Origin: Escherichia phage vB_EcoM_ESCO47 | Strand: one strand, 5' to 3' | DNA length: 64,000 bases | Sequence record: OM386662.1 | Shown: positions 1,889 to 43,358 of the stretch, in pieces | Layout: each line of letters begins with the position of its first letter | How positions within the stretch are numbered: the stretch's first letter is position 1 | Made by a program: the position numbers and the translations under genes | Notes under the pieces: generated by a model | What the model was told of the DNA's origin: nothing | The model's database searches: none | Seen by the model: only the letters and a program-made list of their open reading frames with translations

Positions 1889-2164
1889 ATGACTACCAAA
1901 AATATTGAAATCGTCCGTGAAATTATTACTGTTGCTTCTATTCTGATGAAATTTTCAAGGGAAGACATTGTTGAGGATCGTCAAACATTTATCGAATTCT
2001 TGAATGAGATAGGAATTAGAAATGATGGCCGACAGTTAAATCAAAACTCATTTAAAAAGCTAGTTTCGAATTTAACTGTCGAAGAAAAGAAAACACTGAT
2101 CAGTGAATTCAATGAGGGTTACGAAAATATTTATCGTCATTTAGTGATGCATTCTAACAATTGA
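1889..2164 (+). CDS. asiA: anti-sigma70 factor AsiA
   Basis: 91 aa; N-terminus VREIITVASIL..KFSREDIV and C-terminal KKTLI.EFNEG match recalled T4 AsiA; early promoter upstream. Confidence 0.9.
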   Translation: MTTKNIEIVREIITVASILMKFSREDIVEDRQTFIEFLNEIGIRNDGRQLNQNSFKKLVSNLTVEEKKTLISEFNEGYENIYRHLVMHSNN

Positions 2165-2169
2165 TTCAA

Positions 2170-2829
2170 TTATTTAGCCCTTCCTAAAATCCTGGCCGCT
2201 TGGTTACAAATAGAAGCTAAGCGGTCTTCTCCTATTATTTTAGTCCCCTTATACCAATACATTGAAACAGCCCCAGCATATACGTTGTCCAAATTAAAAT
2301 AAGGGCAACTATACATGTAGTTTAGTTCCTCAGTTTTAGACTTTGTTGGCAGAAATGCGAACTCTGTTTTAGAATCAAAGTGCCTTCCACTTAAATGAAT
2401 TAAATATTCATTCATAGTCTTATCCACCGGAAATCCACCTAAAGACTTCTCGGAAATGGTAGTAGGTAGTTTACCCTCATATGCAATAAGGTCCACAAAA
2501 TAATTTAAATTTTTAGGGCGGAAAGAATACACTGCACTAAAATCTGCACCGGAAGAGATATGAACTATCTGTAATTGTTCTAAAGCCGCAGATTCAAAAC
2601 GTTGGTCTCTTTCCTTTTGTATAACTTCTGTGTATGTGTCATATTTGGCTCTCACATAATAGTCGAGGAATATAGTTCCTTTATACCATATCAAAGCCAT
2701 AATGAATAAAAGAACAACAACGGCCACACGAGAAACAAGAACTTTCCCGGTGGCATTATCTTTGAAAATACGATCTAACAACCCAAATAGAATATCACTA
2801 GGAGAGAATGATACTCTAGGCGCTGCCAT
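2170..2829 (-). CDS. t: holin T
   Basis: 219 aa; N-terminal LLDRIFKDNATGKVLVSR followed by one TM segment as in T4 holin; adjacent to gene 38. Confidence 0.9.
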   Translation of the reverse strand: MAAPRVSFSPSDILFGLLDRIFKDNATGKVLVSRVAVVVLLFIMALIWYKGTIFLDYYVRAKYDTYTEVIQKERDQRFESAALEQLQIVHISSGADFSAVYSFRPKNLNYFVDLIAYEGKLPTTISEKSLGGFPVDKTMNEYLIHLSGRHFDSKTEFAFLPTKSKTEELNYMYSCPYFNLDNVYAGAVSMYWYKGTKIIGEDRLASICNQAARILGRAK

Positions 2830-2839
2830 AATACCTCCT

Positions 2840-3391
2840 TTATCTGAAGATATTTATCACTCTTTTAAAAAATGATTTTCGTTCTTTTTCTGGCCATGCC
2901 GGGAATTCGCCACCTAAATGCTCATGCTTTTCATAAAGAGCAAAGAAACGTTTAAGATTCTGGTAATAGAATTTCTCGTCTTTATTTGCAACAGAAGCTT
3001 CAACCAAATTAGACAAGACTTGGTACTCTTTAAAAAGTTGATCAAGTTTTCTATTTCTAAGAGTCAAACGTTTATAACACTCATCCTCTTTCCAGCCGCC
3101 ATCTATCCAAAGATCAAACTCGCCAGGCTCATCAAATGTTGCACCCTGTAAGCTTCCTATACTATCAATTTTAACGGGTTGTTTATCGAAGGTCCAAGCT
3201 AGTTTACCGCGATGATCTTCTTCGTAAATCCAATCTTGAATGCGTTCGTCAAAAACAATCGCATATCCTTCTTTATGATCAAGTGGTTTTTTAGTTGTAG
3301 AATGCGCCGGGAGCCCAATGCCTTTAACAGGTTTATATGTTTCTTCTTTATAAAATTCTTTAGTGTCAAAATAGTAGTGGTAAATTTTCAT
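2840..3391 (-). CDS. 38: gp38, T4-type long tail fibre assembly chaperone
   Basis: 183 aa (same as T4 gp38), MKIYHYYFDTKEFYKEE N-terminus; directly downstream of gene 37. Confidence 0.85.
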   Translation of the reverse strand: MKIYHYYFDTKEFYKEETYKPVKGIGLPAHSTTKKPLDHKEGYAIVFDERIQDWIYEEDHRGKLAWTFDKQPVKIDSIGSLQGATFDEPGEFDLWIDGGWKEDECYKRLTLRNRKLDQLFKEYQVLSNLVEASVANKDEKFYYQNLKRFFALYEKHEHLGGEFPAWPEKERKSFFKRVINIFR

Positions 3392-3422
3392 TATTATAAA
3401 GGGCCCGAAGGCCCTCTCCTTA
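3389..3422 (-). promoter_or_regulatory. split ribosome-binding site of gene 38: SD, UUCG hairpin, 9 nt, AUG
   Basis: mRNA reads UAA GGAGA GGGCC-UUCG-GGCCC UUUAUAAUA AUG; hairpin 3401-3414. Confidence 0.65.
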
Positions 3423-6400
3423 AGCTAAACGAACGATATAGTTAAACGCAACGTTTTTAACAGTGTTCTCTGTATTACCTGTTGCGTTAACTGTTATTGT
3501 GTGACTATGTGAGCCTAATGCAACGGTGTGTGTATGAGCACCAATACCTACAGTATGCGTATGAGCACCAACGGCCACGTTATGTGTATGTGCTCCAGCC
3601 GAAGCAGCAGTACCAGATAAAGAGTGACTGTGGTTGCCCTGACTGTCTGTTTTCGCACAATAACCAGCTCCCTGCTGGTTGGTTCCTTTAACCGTGGATA
3701 CACTTGCCGGAATGGTTACTGTTCCGTATTGGCTCCAACCACTACTGCTCATCCTTAAACCATCTGTGTGAGCATGGGCGCCGGTTGAGTTTGTGGAACC
3801 GCTCAGACTATGTGTATGCGCACCAGCTGAAGCAGCAGATTTGGTACCGTAGTCAAAACTCGAACTTGTCTTAGTACCGTAGTCAAAACTTGACGACGTT
3901 TTTGTACCTAGATCAACCGAGTTAGAAGAAGCACTATGGGTATGAGATTTAACACCATCTGCTTCTGTACTCAACACTGCACGACCACTCGGTTTACCTT
4001 TAATAGTTTGTCCACGCATATCAGGAATAGTTCCTGAAGTATATACTGCACCTAATTTAGGATACGCCGCTTTGTCAAAAGTCTGGCCTTCCATAATAGC
4101 ATAACCCACAGGAGGTGTATCAGTTGGCCATGGAATCGGAGCACCAATCGGATAACTAGAGATGATATCCGTCTTAAGACTATTTATCGTCGTATTTAGG
4201 TTAGCAAAGTTACCAGTACCACCTGTGATATTACCATCAGTACCAATTATAACGGTATTAATTTCAATTTTATTAGGTGAACGGAACGAGCCATCACGTC
4301 TAAATTGCCATGCTAAATCCGCCTTTTGTGGACCTGTTGAATCATTATCACCGCCTTCATGATAGTGAATTCTAAAATCACCCGTACTAATTAATGTACC
4401 CAAAGAATAACAACTATCGCCCTGGACATATCGTTGTTTCAAAATAGGAACGTAAGTACTTGTATCTGTACGATTAATATTCATGTAGAATGGGGCACGA
4501 ACATTTTCATTATTTTGCGAGACAAATGAACCAGCCCCTGCTGGTTTAACAATATCAGTACATTCAGCATCAATATATGTCGACTGCCCTAATTGCATAC
4601 GGAAATTAGGACTTATACGCGAATTAGTGGTCAACACAACGAGTTTTGTATCATTGTCTACGGTGACCATATTACCGCCGGCACCATCATCACCTAATGT
4701 AACGGTATGACGCATTTGTACCATGCCATTATTAAGACTAATACTTAATGGGCGGAGATTACTTATTCCACCGCTTTCACCAGCATCTTTGGGAGTTGGA
4801 ATAATATGCAATGCTGCTTCAGAGCGGCGGAAAATAGCACCGTATTCGGCATTCCAAATTCTTAATGCATCATTAGTTCCACCAATTTTAACTTGACCAC
4901 TAATAGAAGAACCGCCTGTTAAACTAAGTCCATTGCTCATGGTAACTGCACCATTTAAAGTGCTCAAACCATCAACTTTAAGACTTCCTGCAGTGTTAAT
5001 AGAGCCGTTAGCATTAACTTGTCCATTGAACTGGGATACAACAGGCCCAGTAGTTTCAGAGCCACTTGGAGCCATACGCTGTGAATAAAAATAATATCCT
5101 TGTCCATCAGAAACTTCGAATACTGTTTCGCGCGCTTTGTCACCGGTAGCATTAAAACTATTACCCCAAGCTTTAACAGTCACATAACTTTTATTCTGTC
5201 CTGCTCTAGAACCAGCTTCCCACAAGATTTGTTTTGTGCCGTCTACCCCTGTAGGAGCTTTAAATGTTAAAGCCGACGTATTATCGTCACCTGCAAAATA
5301 CATGCCGGATCGTATAGAAATACGTTGGGTTGAATAGATGGTACCATCAGCCCTAAGATTTAATTCATTATTACCGGTTTTGATGTTTAATATGCCAGGT
5401 TCAACAATAAGACCCTCGGACATAGATACTGCCATACGTCCTGTGCCACGGAAATAATGATAAAACTTACCATTACTATTATACCCAAGATGAGTTTGTC
5501 CATCACCGTTAGCATTACCATCAGGAGTTGTTTGAATTGTTAAAACAGAAGCGTTATTTCCAGGCATTACCCAGGTGGCACCAGAGTCATCTGAGCGACC
5601 GACAGTCAAACGTTTCGTACTTAAAAATACCCCATTTGTTAAAGTCGCAGTAGAAGTACCTTGTGCAACAAAATCAATTTTACCTGAAGCGATAGATTTG
5701 AATCCAGTAGATGGGTCCCCTAGAACTATATAACATTCGCCCATAGCGCCAGTTGAACCATAGTTATTAATGTTTTCATCTGCGGTAATTGTGCCAATTG
5801 CGAGAGAACGACGTAATACTAAAGATCCATCATTACGAAGACCCATCCGTTTATTAATCGCGGTGTCACCTGTCCACCAAGAAATCTCTTCGCTTTTACC
5901 AGTTTGTGAAGAAACTAATTCATGATAAATCGTGCCGCCGGATTTTGCGCGGAATTTACGAAGATAGTTAATACCGTTTTCTTCACCTGTGCCAGGATAA
6001 ACATACTGAACTAATGATTGCGAATCGTATTGTCCAAATGCTTTTGTGTCTAAAACAATGGTTTTCGTATTAACTTGTGGAGCAGAAACTATACCAGTAG
6101 CGGAGTTAATATTGCCTGACGCAGAAATATTACCTGTTGCAACAACCAAGCTACCAGAATCAACCGTAAATCCACCATCGCGTCGGAAAGTCCAATATTT
6201 CGAAGTGCCTGTTTCATCAATATAATGCATCTTCATTGAGCCTTCATTAACTAAGGTCCCTAATGAGAAAGTACCATCTTTATAACGTTGCTTAATTAAC
6301 GGGTTATATTCTGAAGTAGCGGTTGATGCGGAAATATCCATGAAAATAGGGGCTTTTGCCGTGTGTTGACCGGCCCAAGAACCAACTCCGGTGCCCTTAT

Positions 6401-6674
6401 AAGCAAATTCGATATATCCACCTGATGCAACATTTTGTGAGCCTATTAAATTAAATGTACCTGTCTGAGTATAGTTACCTACATGAGTTACATTACCATT
6501 AATATCCCCACCTTTAGCGAACCCAAGGTTAATAATATTGCCTAAATCATCTTTTGTAAAAATAGTACGATCTTTTAAGTTTATAGCCAATTCACCTTCG
6601 GCTAATTGCGCAGCTGTTGGATTAACACCAGCTACTTTGCTTCTTTTAAATTGTATTTGCTTAATAGTAGCCAT
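3420..6674 (-). CDS. 37: gp37, long tail fibre distal subunit (receptor-binding tip)
   Basis: 1084 aa; C-terminal GAHTHS/GAHAHT/GSHSHT His-box repeats and ..NYIVRLA end typical of T4 gp37. Confidence 0.9.
3500..3640 (-). repeat. His-box repeats (GAHTH / GSHSH) at gp37 C-terminal tip
   Basis: repeated GTGTGAGC / GTGTATGAGCACC motifs encoding HxH pairs. Confidence 0.7.
3844..3933 (-). repeat. 30-bp in-frame tandem repeat within gene 37 ([10 protein letters not shown] units)
   Basis: GTACCGTAGTCAAAACT recurs at 3844 and 3874, diverged third unit at 3904. Confidence 0.7.
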
Positions 6675-6688
6675 AAGTCCTCTTTAAC

Positions 6689-7351
6689 TTAATAATAGCC
6701 GAAATCTTGTACAGAATCTTTAATAACAATTTGGTCAAAACGAGGAACGTGTGAAGGATCTGACGCAGGGTTCTGGGAGAAAAAGTTTGGAGCTGTTAAT
6801 GCACCAATCATAGTATCGCCTGAACGAAGTACACGGCTGTTTGCGTTATTATTAACTGTATTTATTTGCCCATCAACATAATCTTTACGAGTAAGGTCAT
6901 TAGCCGCGATAGGAGCAACTGCATTACTTCTTATTTGACCTACTGCTGTCACAACGCCTTTTGTACTAATATCACCATTACGTGCATTAATTACAACAGT
7001 TCGGTCTGCTGAACCTTGTGATGATTTAAAACCAATACCATTCCACGAAACGATGTCGATATTTGCCATATCAAAAGTAGCTGAATCACCGTTACCTGGA
7101 TAAACACCACACTGTTGACTACTACCTACGGTAGGAACATGTACGCCTCCATTAAATCGAACAGTTGCAGCGTAAGTACCACCATTAGCTTTAGAAACGA
7201 AATCGTTATCAGCCGCTTGTGGTTTGTTATATTCAGAATATAATTTAAACGTTTTGTATAAGATGTCGTCGCCAGCTGGCATTAAAGGGAAATTACCTTG
7301 GTGCCAAATGACCGAACCACCTGTTGTTGAACCTGCTTTTAAATCTGCCAT
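6689..7351 (-). CDS. 36: gp36, long tail fibre distal connector
   Basis: 220 aa, position between 35 and 37; TATAAATA late promoter upstream. Confidence 0.85.
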   Translation of the reverse strand: MADLKAGSTTGGSVIWHQGNFPLMPAGDDILYKTFKLYSEYNKPQAADNDFVSKANGGTYAATVRFNGGVHVPTVGSSQQCGVYPGNGDSATFDMANIDIVSWNGIGFKSSQGSADRTVVINARNGDISTKGVVTAVGQIRSNAVAPIAANDLTRKDYVDGQINTVNNNANSRVLRSGDTMIGALTAPNFFSQNPASDPSHVPRFDQIVIKDSVQDFGYY

Positions 7352-7377
7352 TATTTGGCCTCCTTATAAGTATACCG

Positions 7378-7385
7378 TATTTATA
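7378..7385 (-). promoter_or_regulatory. late promoter TATAAATA for gene 36
   Basis: TATTTATA on + strand, 27 nt upstream of start. Confidence 0.55.
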
Positions 7386-7410
7386 CAAAAATGGGAGACC
7401 GAAGTCTCCC
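7386..7410 (-). terminator. hairpin terminator between genes 35 and 36
   Basis: same 18-nt GGGAGAC-UUCG-GUCUCCC module on - strand, followed by AUUUUUG. Confidence 0.55.
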
Positions 7411-7414
7411 TAAA

Positions 7415-8542
7415 TTATTCCGATGCTTCTCTAAATTCTTGACCAAATACTTTACCCGTATCAGTTGAAGATTGGGTAGGGAACGTCATAATATCTGGAG
7501 GACTTAAAGATTCTGAAACATAATTTACACGAATACCATTTACACCAAATTCTGCGGCCTTCGGTATACTTCCATTACACGAAACTTCAGTGAATATAAT
7601 ATTTCGTAATCCACCTTGACCGGCTGCCGCAGTTCGATAACAATAAATTGTGAACCCGTCAGCATCAGCAGGAATTTTAGTATACTCTTCAAATATCTTC
7701 CATTGTCCTGCTGTTCCATCAAAGTTTAAATCTTTAAATGAAATAGGAGACGTTGAAGGAGATTTAAAGAAACGTATAGAAAGTCTTGTGGTTCCTTGAG
7801 CTAACAAATCAGCGTCAGCCATCATCTGGAATTTCGTATAAAGAAAATCACCAGGCTTTAAATTGTAGTTAGCAAGAGGAGTCACTAGTGATGTTGTAGG
7901 CATCCTTTTAACTTCATTATTAGTTCCACCAACGGTAGATAAAAATGTATCCGTCGATTCAAATGTGCGAACAGGGAAACCGGTAGCACCTATATCATCA
8001 ATTGTATCATAAACGACTTCTAACGGAGTGCTATAATCAGCACGAGACTTTTTATTTCCATATTTTATATGCTCTAAAGCAATAGCGTTCTTTCCTGACA
8101 CATAAAACGCGGAATATGAAATGTCCACGATATTTAACACCGGTTGAGCCATAGGAATAACTGAACTACCTGCTTTAGTGAACCAAGTTAAAACTTCAGG
8201 CGGGAAGTTAGTCTTATTATTTGTCACAAAAGCAAATATGAATCCGGGAGCGTAAGAGTTCATAAATGCAACAAAAGCATTTGAAGTTGCGTCGTTTACA
8301 GTAGAAAAATTATAAACTTTACTTTCTACTATGGCACCTGACGACGGATTTATAATGCGAACATTTAATCCAACTGCGAAAACTTGACCACCGAGCGGAC
8401 TATCCTGAAAATTTATATACGGGTTTGTAGTTGAAAGCGGGCATGAACCCGCTATACTTAATTTAAATCTTACTGAATTGCTTTCCGATAAAAATGGCGT
8501 TTGGACGTATCCTTGTCCAAACTTAGCCATAAATTTTTCCAT
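7415..8542 (-). CDS. 35: gp35, long tail fibre hinge
   Basis: 375 aa, synteny 34-35-36. Confidence 0.85.
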   Translation of the reverse strand: MEKFMAKFGQGYVQTPFLSESNSVRFKLSIAGSCPLSTTNPYINFQDSPLGGQVFAVGLNVRIINPSSGAIVESKVYNFSTVNDATSNAFVAFMNSYAPGFIFAFVTNNKTNFPPEVLTWFTKAGSSVIPMAQPVLNIVDISYSAFYVSGKNAIALEHIKYGNKKSRADYSTPLEVVYDTIDDIGATGFPVRTFESTDTFLSTVGGTNNEVKRMPTTSLVTPLANYNLKPGDFLYTKFQMMADADLLAQGTTRLSIRFFKSPSTSPISFKDLNFDGTAGQWKIFEEYTKIPADADGFTIYCYRTAAAGQGGLRNIIFTEVSCNGSIPKAAEFGVNGIRVNYVSESLSPPDIMTFPTQSSTDTGKVFGQEFREASE

Positions 8543-8550
8543 AATACCTC

Positions 8551-11500
8551 TTATTCAATCCATTCGAATTTAACGGTTTTATTAATTGGATCTGGAACAA
8601 TTCTAACATTACCTATACGCAAGAAGTCACGAATAGTAAGGTTACCAATTACCGCGTTATCTGAAGGCAGAGCACCGACATCTGACGGTGAAGGTGGGTT
8701 ACCACTATCAAACACCATAGCAAAAGACGTCCAAGCATCTTTATTTCTCTGCCAGGTTCTAGTGTAACGTATACTACCGCCATTAGCTCCTGTCGGATAA
8801 CAAATCCAATCTTGATAAAGAGAATTTAAACTATTACCGAATTGGGTTAATGTGCCTGGATATTTAATTTCTTGAACACGATTACCTGCAGCATCCCTAG
8901 TCCAATAACCTGGGAACTGAGTATATGTCGCTTCATCATTAATATCGATAGACCAGAATCCAACCGTGCCTTCGGTAGGTTTACGAGTATAAAGATCAGC
9001 CGTTTTAGAGCCACTAGAAATGATTCGACTGTTTACAGTTAAACCACCTGAAGTAATAGTAGCACCATTTGTTATCTGTACACCGTTATCTAATCTAACC
9101 AGACCTGTAGCATTATTGATAGTCAATGGGCGTAATGAGTTAAATGTCCCAGACTGATTACCAGAATCGGTTAAAACGAAATATGAACTATTTCCGGCGT
9201 TATGAATCATAAAGCCGTAGTTACCATTAATCGCTCTAAATGCTATAGGAGATCGAGAAACAATTTCACCATTAGACGAAATAGAACCGGTAGAAGTGGT
9301 CGTACCTGTCACAGTCAAATTACCTGTTGCATTAAGGTTTACGGATGTCAATCCACCATTAACGTTCATCTGGATATTGCCAAGATTATTTCTCTGAGTA
9401 TAGAAATGATGGCTTGTTTCATCACTAACTTCAAATACTGTAGCTCGTGTTTTATCAGCACCGCTGCCAAACGTATTACCAAAAACTCGAATAGAAACGT
9501 TTTCTGTTGAACTTGTGGCGTACTGATTTCCCTTTTCGAAAATTAGACGCGGAGCAGTATCGGTATTAGCAATAGTTAATGTACTATTTGCGGATACTGA
9601 ACCACCAAAGAATCCGGTGCTTGTAGATACTAAAGGAGCACTCAGGTTCAATTGTTTAGTCAGACTTAAAGAACCATTAACTGTCTGGTCGATATCTCTA
9701 CGGATAAACTGAAGAGAATCCAGGCCATCTAACAACTCAGTATCAGCGGCTTTTGCTTTCAATGGTAAATAGTTAGCAAGCACACGGTTAAATTCATAAG
9801 GAGAAATAGCATAACTATTTTTCTCGTATAAGTTTAGATCCTGAGTATTGCCTTGTGTATCATTACCAACAAAAGTGATAGAACCGGATGAAGTTTTAAC
9901 GAATCCGCGAATCGCCGTAGTAGCAGCCCATGTTGGTTCATTCTGGACAATCCATTTTAAATTCTTAGGAGATACAGCGGTATTAGCTGAAGTACCAGTA
10001 ACTGTTTCTGCTTGGGTGGCGACTTTAATTACACCTTCAGAAGTTTCAGTGGACTTAGTCCCTAAAAGCTTTTTAGGAGTAATAAGAACATCATCTAAAG
10101 TTCCTGCATTAGATTCTGCCTGGGTCGCTACGCGAAGTGTACCACGTTGTGTTTCATTTGCTTTAGAAATATCGAGAGTATAATGGTTCCACAAGGTTCC
10201 TTCTTCAATAAGTCCGGAATCAGAATTAACACCAGTACGGTCAGAAGAATCAAAATGAGTTTTAACTTTCAAGGGAGTTGAAATTCGAGTATCATCAGTC
10301 CCAGCATCAAATTCAACTTGAGTTGCAATCTCTGCAATACCACTTAAAGCTTCTGTAGCTTTCCTGTCATTTAACGTTTTAGGCGTTACCGCACGAGTAT
10401 AATCAGTCCCAGCATCAGTCTCTGCTTGCGTAGCAATTTCAATTAAACCAATACGTCCGTCTGTAGAAGTTTTCTTATGCAGAGTTTCGGGGGTGACAAC
10501 AGCATGAGAATAACCAGCTTGAGATTGACCTGCAATTACTTCACTTTCAAGAGCCAGAATAGTAGCACCCTGTTGAGTAGAAGTCGCTTTATACTGATCG
10601 AGAGCTTTAGGCGAAATAGTTAACGTAGTTGTGTCTTTATTATAAACGTTAGTGCCTGCAGTCCCACGAGTAGCAGCAGGAGTAGCTGAAGCAGTCGATA
10701 CATATTTAACTATACCTGATAGAGTTTCTGAACCCTGACGTGCCTGTAATTTCTTAGGAGTGATAATAGTTGTATCATCGGTCCCAGCATCAGTCTCTGC
10801 TTGAGTAGCTATTTCTGCTAAACCGCGACGAGTTTCAGTCGCTGTACGCTCATTTAATTTCTTAGGTGTAACAATTGTATCATCAACAAATGTTGCAGTA
10901 GAATCCTGATTAACTTGAGCGGTAGTAGCAGTTTTTGCAATACCACGTCGAGTTTCAGTCGCTGTACGATTAGCTAATGTCTCTGGGGTAATTGCAACTT
11001 CTTTAGCCGGAGAATTTTCTAAATCAACATTTGCTTGTGCTTGGTTAGCCAAAGCAATAACACCTACACGAGCACGAGTAGTATCATTTAATGAATCAAC
11101 ACGTTCTACAGTCGGTATGTTTTGTTGAACAATCCAATAGTTGTTTCTACCGGCTTCTTCGATATAAGCTAATTCAATTACAGGAACATAAGAAGTAGTC
11201 CCATTAAATTCTAACTCTGTAACGGAAACCCAATCGGCATCAGGTGGATATTCTGAACGTTTAGGGAACTGAAGAAGTTCTACACTACTATAAATTGTAT
11301 CGGTACTTGCGGCTTTAATTTTAACCGTTTGACCTTTACGCATATAGTTTAATGAAATTTTAACAGTGTCTCCACTCAAAATTCCGGTAGGAAGAGTAAG
11401 ATTCACAGTTGATACTGAAGCATTGTTAGCACCAAACACGAGAATTTCTTCGTTAGGGCTAATTACGGTGTCAGTTCGTACAATGCGCAGTCGTGATTTC

Positions 11501-15684: not shown

Positions 15685-15706
15685 GGGAGACTTCGGTCTC
15701 CCTTTT
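15685..15706 (+). terminator. intrinsic terminator after gene 32
   Basis: GGGAGAC-UUCG-GUCUCCC followed by UUUU. Confidence 0.7.
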
Positions 15707-29808: not shown

Positions 29809-29813
29809 TTTTA

Positions 29814-29835
29814 GGGAGACTTCGGTCTCCCTTTT
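29814..29835 (+). terminator. intrinsic terminator (identical hairpin to 15685)
   Basis: GGGAGAC-UUCG-GUCUCCC plus UUUU. Confidence 0.7.
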
Positions 29836-30754: not shown

Positions 30755-30765
30755 TCTAACAAACA

Positions 30766-30779
30766 GGGGCTTCGGCCCC
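30766..30779 (+). terminator. UUCG hairpin after ORF 30389..30754 (weak U tract)
   Basis: GGGGC-UUCG-GCCCC. Confidence 0.35.
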
Positions 30780-30795
30780 TATTGAGGAAATTAAA

Positions 30796-42729: not shown

Positions 42730-43356
42730 ATGTACAAATATACGTTTACCGTACGTTTAGGCGATAAAGAAGTGAATTGTAGAGCCTTTACTTTAAAAGA
42801 ATATTTAGGACTTATAGGTGCGCGGGCTACCGGTACTATTGAATCAGCAGTGAACAATATTATCACTAATTGCTCTAACGCTAAAAACTTGACTAAACAA
42901 GAAGCCGAGTTATTGTTGGTAAATTTGTGGGCACATTCGTTAGGTGAAGTGAATCAAGAACACACCTGGAATTGTTCCTGTGGGCATTCATTTCAAGTCT
43001 ATATGAATTTATTGCACACTCAATTGGATGAACAGGCCGATCCCTGGTATTCGTTTAGTGGTATTAAAATTAAGTTCCGTCAACCTAAATTATTTGACGA
43101 TAAAAATATCGCATTAATGATTGCTTCATGTATTGAGGCTGTTTTTGTCAATGGAGAGTCCATCCCTGTTGAAGATTTAACTGAAGCGGAAATAAACGAC
43201 CTTTACGGCCTTATAACAGAAGATGACATGATCAATATTAAAAATCTTTTGGTATCGCCATCAATTTATCTGGCAACCCCTATTAAATGTCCCAAATGTG
43301 GGGCGTCACACGTTCACACAATACGAGGCCTCAAAGAATTCTTTGAGTTACTATAA
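42730..43356 (+). CDS. 26: gp26, baseplate hub subunit
   Basis: 208 aa (T4 length); TATAAATA plus GGAG upstream. Confidence 0.8.
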   Translation: MYKYTFTVRLGDKEVNCRAFTLKEYLGLIGARATGTIESAVNNIITNCSNAKNLTKQEAELLLVNLWAHSLGEVNQEHTWNCSCGHSFQVYMNLLHTQLDEQADPWYSFSGIKIKFRQPKLFDDKNIALMIASCIEAVFVNGESIPVEDLTEAEINDLYGLITEDDMINIKNLLVSPSIYLATPIKCPKCGASHVHTIRGLKEFFELL

Positions 43357-43358
43357 TG
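43325..43358 (+). promoter_or_regulatory. split RBS of gene 25: SD, hairpin, 8 nt, AUG
   Basis: GAGG 43325-43328, hairpin CUCAAAG-AAUU-CUUUGAG 43330-43347, UUACUAUA, AUG 43356. Confidence 0.6.

Follow-up and report, generated by a model that had tools for sequence, protein, structure and literature searches.

Results

Organization of the 36-37-38-t region

The window analyzed here is a stretch of 64,000 nucleotides of Escherichia phage vB_EcoM_ESCO47 (OM386662.1). Its minus strand encodes genes 36, 37, 38 and t in the order known from T4 (Table 1). Annotation of gene 37 draws on a region of phage LF82-41 that is 95.9% identical. The gene 38 product was recognized by tblastn, with identities of 98.4% to LF82-41, 76.4% to T4 gp38, ~65% to typical Mosigvirus gp38 and ~29% to lambda Tfa; a Pfam search of this 183-aa protein gave no match. 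These gp38 identities, together with a 20-kb backbone stretch that is ~91% identical to Mosigvirus-like phages, identify the phage not as T4, but as a Mosigvirus-like relative that carries a T4-type gp38 chaperone. Positions 2840-6674 (minus strand) are mosaic with respect to the rest of the window, gp38 being nearer to T4 (76%) than to typical Mosigvirus (65%), and LF82-41 is the only close match (96-98%) to the 37/38 region. The 3' part of gene 37 (3436-3800, minus strand) shares ~90% DNA identity with the side tail fibre gene of siphovirus 9g (Nonagvirus), indicating that unrelated phage families have exchanged the receptor-binding tip horizontally. At the gp35 position, a 375-aa protein (7415-8542, minus strand) matches the Pfam family ILEI (interleukin-like EMT inducer) with an E-value of 1.3e-6 and 29.3 bits, just over the gathering threshold of 27. 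An Rfam scan of positions 2000-9000 returned nothing at the 37/38 junction and two sub-threshold chance matches elsewhere.

The nearest T4-type late promoter upstream of gene 38 precedes gene 36 and is the presumed source of a 36-37-38 transcript. Between this site and gene 38, the pattern search of the minus strand recovered no further TATAAATA, and close upstream of gene 38 there is no late-promoter site with one mismatch or fewer. A promoter belonging to gene 38 itself was therefore rejected, sigma-70-like matches being at background level. Because no late promoter was found nearer, gene 38 is most likely read from the 36-37 late mRNA. Further downstream, GATAAATA at 2851-2858 (minus strand) is one mismatch away from the late-promoter consensus and stands just before the ordinary Shine-Dalgarno (SD) sequence AAGGAGG of gene t, whose AUG is at 2829. 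In RB69 an exact TATAAATA stands at the corresponding position before gene t (locus L030, about 6180-6187), and gene t may possess its own late promoter in some relatives.

Table 1. Features of the 36-37-38-t region and related hairpin elements of the window.
Feature	Position	Strand	Basis
Holin T (gene t)	2170-2829	-	Pfam
Gene 38, T4-type (Tfa-like) distal tail-fibre assembly chaperone, 183 aa	2840..3391	-	tblastn
Gene 38 AUG	3389..3391	-	first possible start of the ORF
A/U-only spacer UUUAUAAUA, 9 nt	3392..3400	-	sequence
Extended hairpin, 8 bp, predicted	3398..3417	-	MFE structures
Core hairpin GGGCC-UUCG-GGCCC, five G/C pairs, C(UUCG)G tetraloop	3401..3414	-	sequence, RNAfold
Stem arm 2, GGCCC	3405-3401	-	
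Loop, UUCG	3409-3406	-	
Stem arm 1, GGGCC	3414-3410	-	
Shine-Dalgarno UAAGGAGA, overlaps gene 37 stop	3415..3422	-	sequence; invariant in 12 distinct junctions
GGAGA	3419-3415	-	sequence
Gene 37 stop, TAA/UAA	3422-3420	-	ORF list
Gene 37, long tail fibre distal subunit, 1084 aa	3420..6674	-	ORF list; Pfam Collar and Phage_fiber; GenBank annotation of LF82-41
gp36	6689-7351	-	Pfam
Late promoter TATAAATA, T4-type, nearest upstream, before gene 36	7378..7385	-	pattern search
GGGAGAC-UUCG-GUCUCCC after gene 35; then U5, TATAAATA (7385-7378) and normal gene 36 SD	7410-7393	-	
AGGGGC-UUCG-GCCCCU-auu-GAGGA, AUG 8 nt further	30765-30780	+	
Gene 25 split ribosome-binding site: GAGG (43325-43328), CUCAAAG-AAUU-CUUUGAG (43330-43347), 8-nt spacer UUACUAUA, AUG (43356)	43325-43358	+	
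UAAGGGC-UUCG-GCCCUUA-GGAGA-uaaaa-AUG; stop in 5' arm, SD begins in 3' arm	44991-44974	-	

A hairpin separates the Shine-Dalgarno sequence from the gene 38 start codon

The stop codon of gene 37 is part of the SD sequence UAAGGAGA, which is complementary over 7 nt (UAAGGAG) to the 3' end of the 16S rRNA; the computed energy of its duplex with ACCUCCUUA is -9.0 kcal/mol. The spacer that follows the hairpin (3400-3392) holds neither a G nor an SD-like sequence, and no other SD is present ahead of the gene 38 AUG, which lies 28 nt from the gene 37 stop codon. From residue 1 onwards, the N-terminus MKIYHYYFDTKEF aligns with T4 gp38 and its relatives. An alternative start of gene 38 was discarded, given this conservation and the position of the AUG at 3391 as the first possible start. 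Cleavage by RegB at GGAG was likewise set aside. RegB acts on early mRNAs, and gene 38 is a late-strand gene.

The sequence-only reading of this DNA had placed GGAGA 23 nt from the AUG in linear sequence and an all-G/C stem of 5 bp with a UUCG loop (3401-3414) between the two, and reading the interval 3419-3389 confirms this layout. At such a distance (more than about 15 nt) the SD is too far away for direct use, as is characteristic of a split ribosome-binding site. Once the 14-nt hairpin is looped out, 9 nt remain from GGAGA, in line with the roughly 9 nt proposed earlier, and 10 nt from GGAG, both in the functional range.

The predicted fold also covers part of the Shine-Dalgarno sequence

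RNA folding had been suggested as a check, and RNAfold indeed forms the hairpin in contexts of 71 nt as well as 201 nt. The core lies wholly between SD and AUG, appears in the MFE and centroid structures and has an energy of -9.6 kcal/mol. In the MFE structure the stem extends to 8 bp by three weak pairs (A3417-U3398, G3416-U3399 and A3415-U3400) between the AGA of the SD and the UUU 3' of the core. The computed probability of being unpaired is 0.17, 0.06 and 0.02 for the A-G-A of GGAGA, and 0.94 and 0.85 for its two G's. In free RNA the hairpin is thus predicted to bridge and also to partly mask the SD, and such a structure might hold initiation back as well. The lower stem contributes -3.6 kcal/mol in the window and -5.7 kcal/mol in phage p000v; since both values are weaker than the -9.0 kcal/mol of the SD:anti-SD duplex, binding of the 30S subunit should open it.

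An extension of the core by weak A-U and G·U pairs is predicted in all junction variants described below, to 8 bp here and to 10-11 bp in the Mosigvirus types. Weaker cores go along with longer A-U/G-U lower stems (variants L002, L008, L009, L020, L022 and others), and the total stability of the extended hairpin is near constant (-12.6 to -13.6 kcal/mol) at core energies between -6.9 and -10.0 kcal/mol. Folding energy alone is not significant, as the 71-nt segment reaches a z-score of only -1.47 and 16 of 200 shuffles fold as well.

The helix is conserved among T4-type junctions

We read the 37/38 junctions of 24 genomes or contigs of GenBank phages, which yielded 12 distinct T4-type sequences. 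Scans of IMG/VR and metagenomes gave few loci (two with a gene 37 3'-end pattern; one, five and three in gp38 protein and alignment searches). UAAGGAGA is invariant in 12/12 distinct junctions and in all of them the stop codon lies within the SD (UAAGGAG). The 5-bp helix is paired in every one of the 60 cells of the alignment (12 junctions, five pairs). Pair 4 is G-C in five junctions (T4, VR25, PhiZZ30, C6 and TH58), A-U in another five (p000v and other Mosigvirus), C-G in one, shared by this window and LF82-41, and G·U in one (G53); the junction of LF82-41 is identical and was already public. Compensatory changes hence keep the helix, and only two of 500 shuffles reach the observed covariation score, slid controls scoring lower. 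The other four of the five stem pairs never vary, so that all covariation falls in one pair among fairly close relatives, and since only one pair varies the support from compensatory change is modest. Loops vary between UUCG, UUAG, UUAU, UUCU and GUUA with the stem kept, and the spacer from hairpin to AUG is 7-11 nt long, A/U-rich and never SD-like in all T4-type junctions.

The conserved structure is specific to the mRNA sense. In every variant the sense strand is computed to be more stable than the antisense strand, as in G53, whose G·U pair corresponds to an A·C mismatch in the antisense sequence (-12.6 versus -5.8 kcal/mol). A cruciform or protein-binding palindrome acting at the DNA level was rejected on account of this strand asymmetry, seen both in the G53 G·U pair and in the UUCG loop, which exists on the sense strand only.

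UUCG hairpins are enriched in the window and follow stop codons

The whole-segment z-score of -1.47 would by itself be compatible with a chance palindrome that has no function. We compared counts in the 64-kb window with 300 dinucleotide shuffles. Perfect all-G/C stems of 5 bp with a 4-nt loop occur three times at 0.10 expected, and all three have a UUCG loop, a combination that the shuffles never produced; C(UUCG)G hairpins whose stem has 5 bp or more occur nine times at 0.36 expected. It is this enumeration and comparison, not energy, that places the 37/38 hairpin above chance, and the helix is moreover kept with compensatory changes and across unrelated flanks. A chance origin can thus be dismissed for practical purposes.

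All nine UUCG hairpins are intergenic, and eight of them lie at most 24 nt after the nearest called same-strand stop; the ninth (29813-29832) is found 347 nt past such a stop. The hairpin at the 37/38 junction is the sole one of the nine with an SD upstream and none downstream. The other eight stand ahead of a promoter, a U-run or an ordinary SD, and only that of 37/38 splits an SD from its start codon. Four are copies of GGGAGAC-UUCG-GUCUCCC, at 15685-15702 and 29813-29832 on the plus strand and at 51742-51723 and 7410-7393 on the minus strand, each followed by a U-run, and by their sequence they look like intrinsic terminators. The elements at 44991-44974 (minus strand) and 30765-30780 (plus strand) show the conventional order of hairpin, SD and AUG. 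Tuerk et al. reportedly described C(UUCG)G hairpins of T4 intercistronic regions in 1988. The 37/38 element resembles these in having an unusually stable UUCG loop closed by C-G, a G/C stem, an intercistronic position and an enrichment over chance.

According to a rival explanation, the 37/38 hairpin would act as a rho-independent terminator or attenuator behind gene 37 and lower transcription into 38 and t. A G/C-rich hairpin followed by U-rich sequence, with a purine run before and a U run after the stem, resembles a terminator; in addition, the Mosigvirus relatives carry 5-6 U after the stem, and the records of two of them, G53 ("putative transcriptional terminator, -11.20") and NBG1, annotate a terminator. 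In the window, however, only three U follow the core stem and these are predicted to pair with the SD. A consensus scan gave no call at the 37/38 site, although it reported the 35/36 hairpin, and T4 has UUCUAAAU after the stem and no U-run. Furthermore, no promoter belonging to gene 38 was found, and efficient termination would abolish expression of an essential chaperone gene; for this reason at most a partial attenuator is plausible. We consider termination unlikely as the main role of the 37/38 hairpin.

Relatives keep the hairpin with a downstream Shine-Dalgarno sequence

Several relatives keep a hairpin at the same place and have their SD elsewhere. The junction of Citrobacter phage Moon, whose gp38 is of the T4 type and 34% identical, reads UAA-UAGAUU-GGGGC-UUCG-GCCCC-UCU-GAGGA-AACU-AUG, with the ribosome-binding site annotated downstream of the hairpin. 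RB69 and T2 encode unrelated T2-type adhesins as gp38, and their junctions read UAAUAA-GA-GGGGC-UUCG-GCCCC-UU-GGAGG-UGUAU-AUG and UAA-A-AGAGGGC-UUCG-GCCCUCU-AAGGA-UUUUUA-AUG, respectively. None of these three has a U-run after the stem, a further point against a terminator. When the junction types are aligned, the hairpin alone is shared and the flanks of RB69, T2 and Moon are unrelated. T4, RB69 and Moon share the 14-nt hairpin without a single difference, although the gp38 proteins are only 34% identical (Moon) or unrelated (RB69). Siphovirus 9g, which shares ~90% of the fibre-tip DNA, has a TAATG stop-start overlap to its tfa gene and no hairpin.

Because RB69, T2 and Moon keep the hairpin together with a downstream SD, bridging cannot be its only reason, and the hairpin either pre-dates the split arrangement or is independent of it. 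One explanation goes further and holds that its main job has nothing to do with initiation: as a member of the post-stop UUCG family it would protect the mRNA from 3' exonucleases, mark a processing site or insulate cistrons, and gene 38 would merely tolerate it. Besides the hairpins of the three relatives with their unrelated flanks, this explanation draws on the nine intergenic UUCG hairpins of the window, enriched over chance and in eight cases within 24 nt after a same-strand stop. It leaves unexplained, however, how translation of gene 38 starts in the absence of a nearby SD, why UAAGGAGA invariably abuts the stem and why the distance from stem to AUG is limited to 7-11 nt in T4-type junctions. 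We regard a main role outside initiation as possible, but lean against it; as an account of where the hairpin came from, it is compatible with bridging.

Judged from these sequences, the T4-type site looks like a case of initiation accommodated to a pre-existing hairpin. RB69 UAAGAGGGGC and T4 UAAGGAGAGGGGC differ in three bases, which suggests an easy route by which an upstream SD might have arisen. An extended version of this idea can be formulated. The UUCG hairpin after gene 37 would be an ancestral T-even element, independent of the SD, and form a conserved island of ~20 nt between two hypervariable host-range cassettes. Possible roles there include that of an mRNA 3'-end element, an insulator or a patch of homology at which cassettes are exchanged. 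The split ribosome-binding site would be secondary: a lambda-like fibre-tip/Tfa module would have become attached at the hairpin, and the purine-rich stretch 5' of the hairpin (RB69 UAAGAG) would have turned into an SD (UAAGGAGAG). A weaker core would be balanced by a longer lower stem, so that the total stability stays near -13 kcal/mol, and this would tune the gp38:gp37 ratio. Taken as a whole, this is a tentative picture that we would not yet favour.

Discussion

Noncontiguous initiation sites have a well-known example in T4. A review reports that the 22-nt spacing of T4 gene 38 is cut to 5 by an intervening structure, that of T4 gene 25 from 27 to 11, and that destabilising mutations lower initiation (PMC3014915). 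The sequence-only reading had likened the junction studied here to that of T4 gene 38, a likeness borne out by two reviews (PMC3014915; PMC7297116) and by the T4 junction itself, which we read from phage T4T as UAAGGAGA-GGGGC-UUCG-GCCCC-UUCUAAAU-AUG, where SD and AUG are 22 nt apart. The T4T and window junctions align base for base except in pair 4 and the spacer. Both have the orthologous 37/38 position, UAAGGAGA on the gene 37 stop, a 5-bp G/C hairpin with C(UUCG)G directly after the SD, an A/U spacer to the AUG and no proximal SD. They differ in stem pair 4, which is C-G in the window and G-C in T4, and in the spacer, with 9 nt (UUUAUAAUA) in the window versus 8 nt (UUCUAAAU) in T4 and a linear spacing of 23 versus 22 nt. 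The gp38 proteins are only 76% identical, and the genome backbone is Mosigvirus-like. We conclude that the 37/38 element is probably the orthologue of the hairpin-bridged, or split, ribosome-binding site of T4 gene 38, an arrangement already known from T4 and hence not new.

This conclusion is supported by the presence in the window of the second T4 split site, that of gene 25 at the 26/25 junction, built by the same logic, with a hairpin and a short spacer between a distant SD and the AUG. Its details differ from those of the 37/38 site, as the hairpin is A/U-rich with 7 bp and an AAUU loop and the SD is located inside the upstream gene and not at its stop. The linear spacing in the window is 27 nt, equal to the value reported for T4. 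The gp25 of the window is 89% identical to what we take to be the T4 gp25 sequence. For gene 25, a review (PMC3014915) cites experimental tests (Nivinskas et al. 1999; Malys and Nivinskas 2009) that used mutations, DMS probing and lacZ fusions. For T4 gene 38, another review credits bridging to Gold 1988 and says that a positive effect "was suggested" (PMC7297116). In the literature consulted, where the primary papers are represented by the reviews that cite them, no experiment on gene 38 itself was found. Sites of this kind are termed noncontiguous or split, and rpmE, thrS and fis of E. coli are bacterial examples of noncontiguous initiation regions (PMC7297116). Here, too, the initiation region contains a stable stem-loop that is tolerated by the 30S subunit and helps to arrange SD and start codon. 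However, these are cellular genes with larger structures that also are binding sites of regulatory proteins, and the 37/38 element implies no regulator.

The mechanism at gene 38 would follow mainly from inference and analogy. Gene 38, without a promoter of its own, would be read from the late 36-37-38 mRNA, and its sole SD, UAAGGAGA, fused to the gene 37 stop, would at 23 nt from the AUG be too far for normal initiation. The C(UUCG)G hairpin would fold between SD and AUG and be looped out on the 30S subunit, leaving an A/U spacer of about 9-10 nt that is within the working range. In free RNA the stem is probably lengthened by the three weak pairs over the 3' half of the SD. The exposed UAAGG would then pair with the 16S rRNA (-9.0 kcal/mol) and displace these weak pairs (-3.6 kcal/mol), and the G/C core would stay folded. 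It thus seems plausible that ribosomes initiate from the upstream SD while the hairpin is looped out, and that the stability of the hairpin sets the output of gp38, coupling its expression to RNA folding. As a counterpoint to bridging, the A/U-rich spacer might support an SD-independent, S1-mediated initiation.

Ribosomes could also arrive at the gene 38 start from gene 37. In such a termination-reinitiation scheme, ribosomes that end gene 37 would be held by the SD at the stop codon until the refolding hairpin brings the AUG, 28 nt away, within reach. The overlap of stop codon and SD (UAAGGAG) in all T4-type junctions would suit this scheme, as would the failure to find an independent gene 38 promoter; the homologous fibre-tip/Tfa module of 9g has, with its TAATG overlap, the classic coupled arrangement. 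Yet the scheme is purely inferential, and an SD of 7 nt is strong enough to recruit free 30S subunits as well. We consider reinitiation rather unlikely as the route taken. It is a variant of bridging and not an exclusive alternative, and sequence alone cannot separate the two.

The junction thus shows that T4 relatives outside Tequatrovirus also conserve this textbook exception to the SD-spacing rule, with compensatory mutation preserving it. What is added to the T4 arrangement is modest, namely the C-G flip allele, the near-constant total stability, the predicted partial masking of the SD and the evidence for a hairpin that pre-dates the split arrangement. The 37/38 finding opens no new question. 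The comparative evidence for a hairpin older than the split arrangement offers a concrete and testable picture of how noncontiguous initiation sites can arise.

There is also a practical value for annotation, since gene callers and terminator predictors misread the 37/38 junction. Some records label the hairpin as a terminator, and two have moved the start of gene 38 to an AUG in the loop. The latter are the records of O157 typing phages 3 (L009, 383-401) and 6 (L026, 375-393), in which a change of the loop from UUCG to UUAU creates an in-frame AUG. This loop AUG precedes the usual start by six codons and follows GGAG by 9 nt, and its annotation as the gene 38 start makes the protein 6 aa longer.
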